From assembly GCA_964496615.1 (NCBI GenBank), contig CAZCAB010000001.1:1-35536 (forward strand): a stretch of DNA of 35,536 bases, in the 5' to 3' direction. Position numbers and translations under genes: made by a program. Positions 9,461 through 35,536 of this stretch are shown in pieces (within the stretch, counting starts at the first letter, position 1; each line of letters begins with the position of its first letter). The stretch is from an uncultured Gammaproteobacteria bacterium. Its GTDB lineage: Bacteria; Patescibacteriota; Patescibacteriia; Magasanikbacterales; UBA922. The notes under the pieces were generated by a model, which saw nothing but the letters and a program-made list of their open reading frames with translations, had not been told where the DNA came from and did not search any database.

Positions 9461-11387
<1,927 letters not shown>

Positions 11388-11466: not shown

Positions 11467-11494
11467 ATTGTACAGGATATACGAAAAAAGTCAA
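11467..11494 (-). promoter_or_regulatory. groES-groEL promoter
   Basis: TTGACT-N16-TACAAT on the minus strand, immediately upstream of the CIRCE element. Confidence 0.6.
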
Positions 11495-11543: not shown

Positions 11544-11670
11544 AAAAAACCCACCATTGGCACCAAGCTCACTGTGACAACCCCATATGTAAGACTGTGA
11601 TGCCTGTCAAACACAGCCTTGAAAGGGCGTACACGTGCGCCTGAAGCCAATGGTGGATTCTTTAAAGTGC
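11544..11670 (-). ncRNA. Candidate small RNA (about 127 nt), one long irregular hairpin with its own promoter and U-tract
   Basis: An 11-bp closing stem CCACCATTGGC/GCCAATGGTGG (11551-11561 with 11646-11656) extends through UCAGGC/GCUUGG and further helices, followed by UUUUUU. Longest ORF is 5 codons. No SRP GGAA/AGCA motifs. Confidence 0.5.
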
Positions 11671-11676
11671 CTTCTC

Positions 11677-11705
11677 ATTATATGCACAGGTGGGCGCAGC
11701 GTCAA
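11677..11705 (-). promoter_or_regulatory. Consensus-like promoter of the sRNA candidate
   Basis: TTGACG (11700-11705), 17-nt spacer, TATAAT (11677-11682) on the minus strand. Confidence 0.6.
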
Positions 11706-11713
11706 CGGTGGAG

Positions 11714-11744
11714 AGAAAACAAAAAATTGGCTCAGTTAAGCCAA
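11714..11744 (-). terminator. Intrinsic terminator of the Wzy_C-like gene
   Basis: TTGGCT-taactg-AGCCAA followed by TTTTTTGTTTTCT on the minus strand. Confidence 0.55.
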
Positions 11745-11774
11745 TATACTTTTTGTTGTGCATAACATGGTGGA

Positions 11775-13049
11775 TTACTTGTGGAGTGCTAGTGCACAAG
11801 TCACTGATAGCAACATCAGCCCTATCGGGAGTGAAACGTAATAATGATCGAGAAGAACAATTGGGGTGATACTCAGAAGCAGAACTGATTCATATGACAA
11901 ACGATTCATTTGTGAAAGAAAACGTATGCCTGTTATGCAGATGACCATAAATAGTGCAAATCCGACAATCCCTAATTCGACTAAAAACAGCGCAAGCGCA
12001 TTATGAACTGGTTGATACTCCCACGGCTGATATTCTGGTCGCGTGTGCTGGAGTGCGCTTGTATACTGAGCAGGACCAACACCAAAAAATGGTTCACTGA
12101 TTAAAAGTTGTTTTGCATCTTCAAGTGCACTCCCCCGCTCACTTACCGAGGCAACTTCATGAGGTGATTGCACAGAAAAACGCGTGTGTACAAGCGGTGC
12201 GTTAAGAAGTAACATAAAAATGCACGTAATGCCAACTATGTACACCAAACGTCGCTGCACAACTGATCTTGCAACAAAAGAAAAAAGGAGTAAAAGTAAA
12301 AGCGAAAGCCAAGCACTTCTACTAAAACTCAGTATCAGTGAAATACTGCATAGTACTACCACCACATACACCCACGATGGAACATGCTCTTTCTCTATCT
12401 GAATTGAAAAAAGGGCAATCAGCACACTCACCATATACCCACCAAGAATGTTTGGGTGTGGGAAGCTCCCGTATGCACGCAACCATCGTCCAATGGTGTC
12501 TGATTGGATCACTGAGGTCCCTGGTTGCAAGAGCGGATGCTCAGCAAGTCCAAAGAGAGTTGATCCAACGGTAAGCTGGTTTGAAAATTGCCAAATGCTC
12601 AGCAGTGCTGGGATGATCGAACCTAAAATAAACCACCGAACCATTTTCCGTTTATCAATTCCAGAAAAAGAAATGGTGAGAAACAAAAGAACTGCTGACA
12701 AAAAGCGAAGTGCCCATTGCACACCGACATCAACTGAGGGTGATGTATATGCTCGTATATATACATATATAATGATTACAAACAAAGCTAAAATGAATTG
12801 TCGATCAATACTCCACTGAAATGCGATCGACTCTTTTTCCTTAATGATCCTCCGTGCACTTCGGTGCATGTACGCGAGGATAACGAGCCACAAAAGAAAC
12901 TCCCATACATACCACGATATCGTTGCATACTGCCAGACATGTCCATGAATCATCCCTTCTTGTATGATATATACGGTCTGCCATGGCAGCAAAAAAAGTA
13001 GGAGGCACATCAACTTTTCAAAAAATAAGTTGGATATATTTTTTCTCAT
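11775..13049 (-). CDS. O-antigen ligase/polymerase family (Wzy_C-like) polytopic membrane protein
   Basis: 424 aa with about 10 or more hydrophobic segments and the Wzy_C-type motif FSRSAWLSLLLLLL. Confidence 0.7.
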   Translation of the reverse strand: MRKNISNLFFEKLMCLLLFLLPWQTVYIIQEGMIHGHVWQYATISWYVWEFLLWLVILAYMHRSARRIIKEKESIAFQWSIDRQFILALFVIIIYVYIRAYTSPSVDVGVQWALRFLSAVLLFLTISFSGIDKRKMVRWFILGSIIPALLSIWQFSNQLTVGSTLFGLAEHPLLQPGTSVIQSDTIGRWLRAYGSFPHPNILGGYMVSVLIALFSIQIEKEHVPSWVYVVVVLCSISLILSFSRSAWLSLLLLLLFSFVARSVVQRRLVYIVGITCIFMLLLNAPLVHTRFSVQSPHEVASVSERGSALEDAKQLLISEPFFGVGPAQYTSALQHTRPEYQPWEYQPVHNALALFLVELGIVGFALFMVICITGIRFLSQMNRLSYESVLLLSITPIVLLDHYYVSLPIGLMLLSVTCALALHK

Positions 13050-34827: not shown

Positions 34828-35448
34828 ATGCATATTTCATGGCTCGGAACGAGCACACTCAAAATACAAACCAAGCACGAAGGAAAGGATGTAACGCTCG
34901 TCATTGACCCGTATAAACCGAAAAAAGGGGCATTCCCAAGGAGTCTCACACCACAAATTGCGCTGTTTACCCGATCTGAAAAAGACTCGGTTACCTTGTC
35001 AGGAAATCCGTTCATACTGTCCACTGCAGGAGAGTGCGATGTACAAGGAGTTCTTGTCACCGCAGTTGAAGGGCATGATCCTGACACAACCATGCTCAGA
35101 CTTGATCTTGAAGACATGTCCTTGGGCCATCTTGGTCTGTCACATACCCCTCTCAATGAAAAACAGCTCGAAGTACTCAGTGGTGTCGATATACTCTGCA
35201 TTGGCGTGGGTGGGAAAAACGTCCCCACATATTACCCCCATGAAGCGGTAAAAGTGATTAATGACGTGGAGCCGCGGATCATTATCCCGTATGCGTTTAA
35301 AAGTGATAATAGCGCAGATGCAAAACCAGTTGCTGATTTTCTCAAAGAGATGAGTATGCCTGCTGAAAAACCAGAAACGAAAGTGATTATCAAAAAGAAA
35401 GATCTTCCAACCGAACACACACAAGTTATCGTGCTCTCAAAAGAGTAA
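34828..35448 (+). CDS. MBL-fold (UPF0173-like) protein with a degenerate metal-binding motif
   Basis: MHISWLGTSTLKIQ...DVTLVIDPY resembles the N-terminus of metal-dependent hydrolases, but the expected HxHxDH position reads FTRSEKDS. Confidence 0.5.
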   Translation: MHISWLGTSTLKIQTKHEGKDVTLVIDPYKPKKGAFPRSLTPQIALFTRSEKDSVTLSGNPFILSTAGECDVQGVLVTAVEGHDPDTTMLRLDLEDMSLGHLGLSHTPLNEKQLEVLSGVDILCIGVGGKNVPTYYPHEAVKVINDVEPRIIIPYAFKSDNSADAKPVADFLKEMSMPAEKPETKVIIKKKDLPTEHTQVIVLSKE

Positions 35449-35454
35449 AGGAGT

Positions 35455-35536
35455 ATGCCTGTTAAAAAAATAGACAAGAAAAAAAGTCTAAAAAAGAAAG
35501 CTCCGAAAAAAAAGGTGGCTGCTAAGAATACGAGAA
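35455..35536 (+). CDS. Start of a Lys-rich ORF (MPVKKIDKKKSLKKKAPKKKVAAKNTR...) running off the window
   Basis: ATG at 35455, open to the window end. Only 27 codons are visible, so no identification is possible. Confidence 0.3.
   Translation, partial: MPVKKIDKKKSLKKKAPKKKVAAKNTR

Follow-up and report, generated by a model that had tools for sequence, protein, structure and literature searches.

A probable new family of structured small RNAs upstream of groES in part of the Magasanikbacterales, with a candidate target next to gyrA

The DNA analyzed here (the window) is a 35,536-nucleotide stretch from a ~1-Mb, 82%-complete Magasanikbacteria assembly of the Candidate Phyla Radiation (CPR). Within it, a gene encoding a ~310-aa protein is followed by a Wzy_C-like gene, a small RNA (sRNA) unit, a promoter with a CIRCE-like operator, groES and groEL, in that order (Table 1). 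The sRNA unit and all of its parts lie on the minus strand, as do the Wzy_C-like gene and groES/groEL. The Wzy_C-like gene upstream ends in a terminator of its own, which shows that the sRNA is a separate unit; it lies, as the first-pass annotation had placed it, between that terminator and the groES promoter. The end of the window carries the gene pair that precedes gyrA in related genomes. The second gene of this pair begins at bp 35455 (product MPVKKIDKKK...) and is cut by the contig end at bp 35536, while gyrA itself is missing from this assembly.

Table 1. Features of the sRNA locus and of the candidate target locus in the window
Feature	Coordinates	Strand	Remarks
Wzy_C-like gene	13049..11775	-	upstream of the sRNA
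Terminator of the Wzy_C-like gene	11745..11726	-	upstream context of the sRNA
-35 box of the sRNA promoter, TTGACG	11705..11700	-	11 of 12 consensus positions together with the -10 box
-10 box of the sRNA promoter, TATAAT	11682..11677	-	17-nt spacer from the -35 box
Predicted sRNA transcript, ~127 nt	11670..11544	-	leader of ~10 nt, long irregular hairpin, U6 tail
Rod-like hairpin body, ~46 consensus bp	11660..11550	-	lower helix and apical helix; covariation
Closing stem	11656..11646 (CCACCAUUGGC) with 11561..11551 (GCCAAUGGUGG)	-	base pairing
Invariant apical-loop nonamer, GACAGGCAU	11608..11600	-	identical in 39/39 distinct members
U6 tract	11549..11544	-	directly behind the closing stem; read as intrinsic terminator
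groES promoter, TTGACT-16-TACAAT	11494..11467	-	~50 nt beyond the sRNA terminator
CIRCE-like operator, TTATCACTC-N9-GAGTGATAA	11430-11456	-	inverted repeat 5' of groES
groES	11387..11094	-	downstream of the sRNA
groEL	11092..9461	-	downstream of groES
MBL-fold hydrolase gene	34828-35448		first of the pair before gyrA
Predicted target site, AUGCCUGUUAAA	35455..35466	+	covers codons 1-4, AUG included, of the gene for a small Lys-rich membrane protein

The promoter of the unit (TTGACG-17-TATAAT) matches the consensus at 11 of 12 positions and is the best site between bp 11000 and bp 12200. Transcription is predicted to start at approximately bp 11670. The predicted 127-nt transcript folds with -62.5 kcal/mol, compared to -35.2 +/- 3.8 kcal/mol for 200 dinucleotide shuffles (z = -7.15), none of which was as stable. 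This fold is a single irregular hairpin (~111 nt in the window and 111-116 nt in the homologues overall) in which the helices are broken up by conserved small internal loops and bulges, and in the minimum-energy structure the closing stem is lengthened by A-U and G-U pairs. The positions of the hairpin, its stems, its internal segments and its final run of six U residues, as described in the first-pass annotation, are correct. Together with the U-tract, the closing stem constitutes a terminator with a matching 5' A-tract. The further claim that the unit contains no ORF of more than 5 codons stands for ATG starts only: two ORFs that overlap the unit, one of 38 and one of 32 codons, start with TTG. 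The longest ORF ranges from 4 to 38 codons across 39 homologues and so is not conserved, and substitutions in the hairpin track base pairing rather than codons.

A BLAST search for DNA matches to the sRNA in 40 relatives returned none. An nhmmer search of the groES loci of named genomes identified 16 loci with a same-strand homologue upstream of groES, and a search with the invariant core, in which only candidates with a T-run downstream were retained, brought the homologous loci to 22 of the ~24 Magasanikbacteria groES loci, again on the groES strand. The same rod fold is found in each of these 22 loci. The set of distinct homologues comprises 39 sequences. Of the 39, 27 have a TTGAC box that precedes the hairpin base by 35-64 nt, compared to 3.3% of random 40-nt windows. 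Every member retrieved has a U-run after the closing stem, this being partly a selection criterion (the T-run filter).

The hairpin is supported by extensive covariation. A MAFFT alignment of 20 sequences was scored with the structure taken from individual folds. Both partners have changed in 37 of 47 pairs, and 86.8% of cells are paired, versus 34-44% when the partner columns are slid; the observed covariation was reached by none of 500 shuffles. A covariance model (R1) was built and used to realign the 39 distinct sequences. In this realignment, which is biased towards the model, 91% of cells are paired and 37 of 46 pairs are compensatory, while slid-partner controls over both alignments gave 33-44% of cells paired. 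Against the window, R1 matches bp 11544-11660 with 91.7 bits (E = 3.5e-21). Because G-U pairs are frequent and reverse strands score much lower than forward strands (at most 52 bits versus 62-111 bits), the functional strand can be fixed. Some features of the stem are conserved in sequence as well, namely invariant C-G pairs on either side of a purine-purine mismatch, a CG/CG step with a bulge, and a CAUAU loop on the 3' side. The region is thus kept in relatives, and the promoter, the fold, the U6 tract, the conservation and the covariation all support the earlier reading of an independent promoter-to-terminator unit for a structured RNA.

R1 matches were found in 69 of the 151 genomes of the order Magasanikbacterales. 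In the window's own bacterial family, 57 of the 59 listed genomes carry exactly one copy of the sRNA; the remaining positives are 12 genomes, spread over six genera, from another family of the order. A scan of the class gave matches in 4 of 301 genomes, all four in the window's own family. There is one locus per positive genome, the second "match" being the reverse strand of the same hairpin, and its position is fixed across ~46 genera; in the loci that were inspected, the genes on its upstream side recur too. R1 matched none of 59 groES loci from other CPR bacteria and other phyla, and in 20 other CPR loci no known RNA gene was identified ahead of groES. The sRNA family is therefore restricted to part of the order Magasanikbacterales (CPR/Patescibacteria), where it occurs in two bacterial families. 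Other long palindromes are present at the same intergenic site in relatives that lack the RNA.

When Rfam 15 was searched with the window at the gathering threshold, no family matched the sRNA and no SRP RNA was found. There was likewise no match to the 421-nt sRNA region at E <= 10 or to eight diverse family members at E <= 1, so that SRP_bact, 6S RNA and the other known families to which the hairpin might have belonged give no hit even at permissive thresholds. Literature searches found no description of the family. Judging from these searches, it appears to be previously undescribed and kin to no described family. We consider it very probable that this hairpin represents a real structured small RNA, transcribed independently of its neighbours and belonging to a new, narrow-range family.

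The apical loop of this RNA is 11-14 nt in length, and its 3' nine nucleotides, GACAGGCAU, are the only long invariant stretch in the family. These form a GACA tetraloop closed by two weak pairs, which vary only from U-G to C-G, followed by CAU. The reverse complement of the nonamer is AUG-CCU-GUC (AUGCCUGUC), a start codon followed by two sense codons. In the window, the small gene that would precede gyrA begins with a close match to this sequence: its start (AUGCCUGUUAAA) can pair with the loop region (UUUGACAGGCAU) over 12 bp, of which 11 are Watson-Crick and one is G-U (-16.3 kcal/mol). This duplex is the second best among ~1590 ORF starts of the genome, with one of the 1589 others scoring as well. 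In genome G043, the hydrolase and small membrane-protein genes stand in the same order as in the window and are followed by gyrA. In the small protein, a single transmembrane helix separates a Lys-rich N-terminal tail from an acidic C-terminal part, and no Pfam family was found for it. In two loci (L199 and L208), its gene ends 3-4 nt before the gyrA start.

The start of this gene was compared in 14 hydrolase/small-gene/gyrA loci (the window, G043, L177 and eleven others). Five of the 14, counted by target gene alone and whatever their RNA content, start exactly with AUGCCUGUC; by similarity, these five loci appear to be from Magasanikbacteria. The window orthologue starts with AUGCCUGUU, which leaves one G-U pair with the loop, three loci start with AUGCCUGC(U/A) for a seven-nucleotide match, four share only AUGCC, and one has no match. 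Three comparisons suggest that the codons are constrained. First, the proline codon is CCU in all nine complementary starts, while genome-wide use of CCU is ~27%; it is CCA, or less often CCG, in the non-complementary starts, and the neighbouring gyrA starts mostly have CCA. Second, the valine codon is GUC in five of six starts, versus 5-21% genome-wide. Third, the adjacent hydrolase gene of these loci differs at the third position of 56-74% of its conserved codons, and its first codons vary freely. Synonymous positions at the target start thus appear frozen, a nucleotide-level constraint that fits pairing with the loop. Part of the identity could stem from the conserved MPVKK N-terminus and from shared ancestry.

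Because the invariant loop matches the start codon region of the gyrA-adjacent gene, the sRNA is probably a translational regulator. As the likeliest mechanism we propose, tentatively and with somewhat less than even confidence, that it acts in trans and masks the start codon of this membrane-protein gene through its loop. The RNA itself is the predicted product, non-coding and ~115-127 nt in length, of a stand-alone gene with a sigma-70-type promoter and an intrinsic terminator. In the proposed mechanism, its loop would serve as an anti-start-codon seed, the CAU pairing with AUG, and would bind in trans to AUG-CCU-GU(C/U) at the coding start of the gene for the Lys-rich single-pass membrane protein, the immediate upstream neighbour of gyrA and probably part of one transcript with it. 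The 12-bp pairing at bp 35455-35466 would make the start codon inaccessible to the 30S subunit and lower translation of the target protein and perhaps, via coupling, of gyrA. The long rod may stabilize the RNA and present the loop. We infer each of the three steps, transcription, target pairing and repression, from the sequence.

The gyrA-adjacent gene is unlikely to be the only partner of the loop. In G043, which carries the sRNA with the same loop, the orthologous gene starts with AUGCCAAGU, leaving five complementary nucleotides, and in OZ246405, where the sRNA is also present, only seven nucleotides of the orthologous start are complementary. Because the loop is invariant even where the orthologous gene has lost complementarity, the sRNA probably has further targets or a protein partner. 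Several searches were made for such targets. The exact 9-mer complementary to the loop is not over-represented genome-wide in the window's own genome or in G043. RNAduplex comparison of the loop and stem with all ORF starts was noisy and yielded no shared orthologue, and a two-genome search for orthologues with a loop-complementary start in both genomes identified none (the target ORF of the window, cut by the contig end, lay outside this search). Metagenome gyrA loci, mostly from distant lineages, showed no loop complementarity.

Two other genes start exactly with AUGCCUGUC. One (C16:1114), in the window's own genome, encodes a secreted 408-aa protein with a signal peptide; its only homologue, P0004, does not have such a start, and it is therefore at best a lineage-specific target. 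The other (G043:967597) encodes a SIMPL-like membrane protein; its homologue in the window's genome, C71, starts with AUGGCAAAA, so this match is not conserved. Both matches could be lineage-specific targets or could be due to chance.

We also considered that the RNA might be a scaffold or decoy that binds some protein, as 4.5S/SRP, 6S and Y RNAs do, with target complementarity being secondary or coincidental. The RNA is single-copy, near-universal in its family and strongly promoted, as housekeeping RNAs are, and its loop has stayed unchanged even in G043, whose version of the proposed target lacks the complementarity. The conserved irregularities of the stem (the C-G pairs at the purine-purine mismatch, the bulge and the CAUAU loop) are more suggestive of protein recognition than of an antisense RNA. 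Furthermore, no complementarity to, or mimicry of, 16S rRNA, 23S rRNA, tmRNA or tRNA was found in the complete genome G043; the window's own assembly contains no rRNA genes. However, no candidate protein was found: the neighbours of the sRNA are the Wzy_C-like gene and groES/groEL, and none encodes an RNA-binding protein. A scaffold would also leave the frozen synonymous positions of the AUG-CCU-GUC start unexplained. We rank this reading second to start-codon masking and judge it to be rather unlikely.

The constant location upstream of groES raises the possibility that the hairpin is a cis element of the Wzy_C-groESL intergenic region, either an attenuator or riboswitch-like leader or an elaborate terminator or insulator. 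In 28 of 30 loci, the sRNA is followed by a groES gene of like orientation; the closing stem, U-tract and 5' A-tract make up a terminator in themselves; and in ~12 of the 39 members no TTGAC promoter is obvious, so that their transcription might begin further upstream. Nevertheless, this reading is improbable for several reasons. First, groES always has its own strong promoter and a CIRCE-like operator past the sRNA terminator: a TTGACA-type promoter and a CIRCE-like inverted repeat lie between the sRNA and groES in all 24 loci with a readable spacer, and in 15 of these 24 the strict CIRCE pattern is matched. Second, the gene after the sRNA is convergent in one locus (L008) and is a gene other than groES in two others (L094 and L096). 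Since groES retains its own promoter and the next gene in L008 is convergent, the sRNA is not a groES leader. Third, the adjacency of Wzy_C and groES persists in relatives without the sRNA, and the linkage to groES is therefore best read as inherited synteny. Fourth, a terminator needs neither a nine-nucleotide invariant loop nor 46 covarying pairs.

A divergent SRP RNA of the 4.5S type, or its relic, was suggested by the overall shape: the RNA is ~115 nt in length and single-copy, has a strong promoter, and forms one irregular hairpin with a tetraloop above a small internal loop. The first-pass annotation had noted this likeness and left the RNA unassigned for want of the SRP motifs, a judgement that holds. 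The consensus structure is topped by a GACA tetraloop on (U/C)-G and C-G closing pairs, with a UUA/CAU internal loop below; this is not a GNAR tetraloop, the AGCA/symmetric-loop motif of SRP domain IV is absent, and no SRP model matches at E <= 10. In favour of the SRP reading, no other SRP RNA was found in the whole genome with RF00169 and RF01854 or in 40 relatives with RF00169, a search that detected 12 of 14 control genomes.

The protein components of the system appear to be missing as well, which is a stronger reason to set SRP RNA aside than the one given in the first-pass annotation. The Ffh M domain (PF02978) was absent from 26 of 26 genomes. In the window's own genome, the SRP54-type GTPase domain (PF00448) gave merely noise of 15-17 bits, and tblastn with E. 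coli Ffh gave no match. This GTPase domain was found in none of 21 genomes of the order; four weak partial matches of ~28 bits were obtained among 151 genomes of the class, and one true match among the 201 from the phylum; each of the 14 control genomes scored. By these searches, Ffh and FtsY are absent from the genome, the order, the class and nearly all of the phylum sample. A genome paper states that two SRP subunits are missing in many CPR bacteria (PMC8080830), so the loss is already known; in the phylum sample searched here it is nearly complete. With a lineage that lacks an SRP system, the SRP reading is removed, and the restriction of the sRNA to two families, against a phylum-wide loss of SRP, also speaks against it; we regard it as effectively refuted. 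Least credible of all is a palindromic repeat or miniature mobile element without RNA function, which the palindromes at this site in RNA-less relatives might suggest, as the sequence is strictly single-copy, fixed in position across genera and equipped with a dedicated promoter, and its G-U strand asymmetry suits an RNA and not a DNA palindrome.

Returning to the proposed start-codon-masking RNA, its closest functional parallels may be RNAs that act through a loop. Antisense RNAs with an apical loop directed at a start region include the IS10 RNA-OUT/RNA-IN pair, CopA/CopT of plasmid R1 and hok/sok-type regulators, and trans-encoded RNAs whose loops mask translation-initiation regions include Staphylococcus RNAIII and RsaE. 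Like these, the sRNA has a stable stem and a short conserved single-stranded loop complementary to the initiation region of a candidate target, is small, has its own promoter and an intrinsic terminator, and is predicted to occlude a start codon. It is not a cis-antisense RNA, as it is encoded 24 kb from the proposed target in the window. It differs from them in that its seed covers the first three codons, AUG included, and not the Shine-Dalgarno sequence, and in its unusually long stem (~46 bp) with conserved irregularities. It shares no sequence or family kinship with them, and its action is a prediction.

Two housekeeping RNAs and the orphan motifs provide further comparisons. 4.5S RNA (RF00169) is similar in size (~115 nt), in its irregular hairpin with a tetraloop above internal loops, and in being single-copy and strongly promoted, but the sRNA has no match to its model, carries GACA in place of GNAR, lacks the domain IV motifs, is found without Ffh or FtsY and occurs in only two families. 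6S RNA is an abundant ~180-nt rod whose large central bubble imitates an open promoter. The sRNA resembles 6S RNA (RF00013) as a rod-like, stand-alone regulatory RNA whose structure is conserved more than its sequence, but at 111-116 nt its hairpin is ~65 nt shorter, it has no match in Rfam, and its conservation lies mainly in the apical loop. The internal loops between its helices have at most ~5 unpaired nucleotides per strand in the consensus, with no large central bubble; because the bubble is absent, the sRNA is not 6S-like. Orphan, lineage-specific structured ncRNAs were reportedly gathered by comparative genomics in the candidate-motif collection of Weinberg et al. in 2017. As with those motifs, the sRNA is defined by conservation, covariation and a promoter/terminator frame and has no Rfam entry. 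In contrast to them, a specific candidate partner sequence can be named for the sRNA.

All three genes whose starts are exact or near-exact complements of the loop, the gyrA-adjacent bitopic protein gene, C16:1114 and the SIMPL-like gene of G043, encode membrane or secreted proteins. One might therefore speculate that, in these SRP-less bacteria, the loop reads the mRNAs of membrane and secreted proteins at AUG-CCU-GUC starts and so replaces, at the mRNA level, part of co-translational targeting or of envelope-protein control. We consider this idea very improbable.

A large part of bacterial diversity belongs to the Candidate Phyla Radiation, and hardly any of its members have been cultured. 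To our knowledge, based on the literature searches carried out, almost nothing has been reported on RNA-based regulation in these bacteria. The RNA family described here is well supported, being single-copy, near-universal in its clade and backed by 37 covarying pairs. The question of its relation to SRP RNA is settled: the sRNA is not an SRP RNA, and it is found in a lineage without any SRP system. It is unusual for an orphan RNA in having a concrete candidate partner sequence, which is open to analysis with an E. coli reporter and compensatory mutations. Should the pairing prove real, the CPR would have an early example of an sRNA-target pair, one that would place a small envelope protein, and possibly gyrase expression, under riboregulation.

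Two further genes begin with the exact complement (AUGCCUGUC) of the invariant apical loop of the small RNA. The first, outside the window but in the same genome (contig C16), encodes a 408-aa protein with a signal peptide; the sole detectable homologue of this protein has 43% identity and a different gene start. This gene could be a second, lineage-specific target of the RNA or a chance match. The second gene, which encodes a SIMPL/DUF541-like membrane protein, was found between pgk and eno in G043, a complete relative genome that carries the RNA. Its homologue on contig C71 of the genome studied here has a start without the exact loop complement. A run of N near position 1600 of C71 breaks the SIMPL-like gene, and the whole assembly contains 320 N.

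The proposed target at the end of the window, a small Lys-rich membrane-protein gene, is cut by the contig end and precedes gyrA in relatives. gyrA is absent from this assembly (82% complete) and was presumably lost at the contig break.

Searches of the whole assembly detected no SRP54-type GTPases (Ffh, FtsY), Ffh M domain or SRP RNA, and at the level of the order none of these were detected among 21-40 genomes. The corresponding searches gave just four weak partial matches in the class (151 genomes) and one true match in the phylum (201 genomes); the control genomes all scored. The lack of two SRP subunits in many CPR bacteria has already been published (PMC8080830). In the genomes sampled here the absence of the system is near-total, and its extent is striking.

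groES has a variant CIRCE operator, with TTATCACTC-N9-GAGTGATAA in place of TTAGCACTC-N9-GAGTGCTAA. At related loci this variant is kept across the family, 3' of a TTGACA-type promoter and between the RNA and groES. The TTGAC promoter of the RNA itself is missing in one subgroup (loci L018, L021, L022, L088, L095, L096 and L102). Members of this subgroup have a short hairpin (for example, GCCAACUUUAGGUUGG) approximately 60-75 nt 5' of the RNA, which resembles the 3' strand of the RNA closing stem, CCUACUUUGGG. The short hairpin could be a duplication remnant or an element for alternative pairing.

Coordinates of the genes, operator, hairpins and repeats described
Feature	Sequence	Position
groES operator (CIRCE variant)	window	11430-11456
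Gene directly before the Lys-rich membrane-protein gene	window	34828-35448
Small Lys-rich membrane-protein gene	window	35455-35536
Signal-peptide protein gene	C16	1114-2340
SIMPL/DUF541-like gene	G043, contig C1 (L175-L176 region)	967597-968415
Hairpin before groEL	L011	2961-3076
Intergenic repeat, example sites	G043	755642, 797163, 801099, 809174, 813270, 842398
Wzy_C-groES spacer hairpins, relatives lacking the RNA	L063	2352-2476
	L027	2127-2251
	L017	26-150

Other hairpins and repeats were observed in relatives. In L011, a long, near-perfect palindromic hairpin lies right before groEL in a groES-groEL spacer of approximately 350 nt; it has sub-threshold matches to microRNA-precursor and Wolbachia sRNA models and probably belongs to the hairpin repeats that many CPR genomes contain. 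G043 carries approximately 11 copies of an intergenic repeat, GGAGTCGAAATATCTCGTGTTTGTTTCACTATTTT, clustered from 750 to 845 kb. Relatives that lack the RNA while keeping the Wzy_C-groES gene order have different long hairpins in the same spacer, including a palindrome in L063 with the ends GTCAT...ATGAC. The Wzy_C-groES spacer seems to accumulate structured elements.
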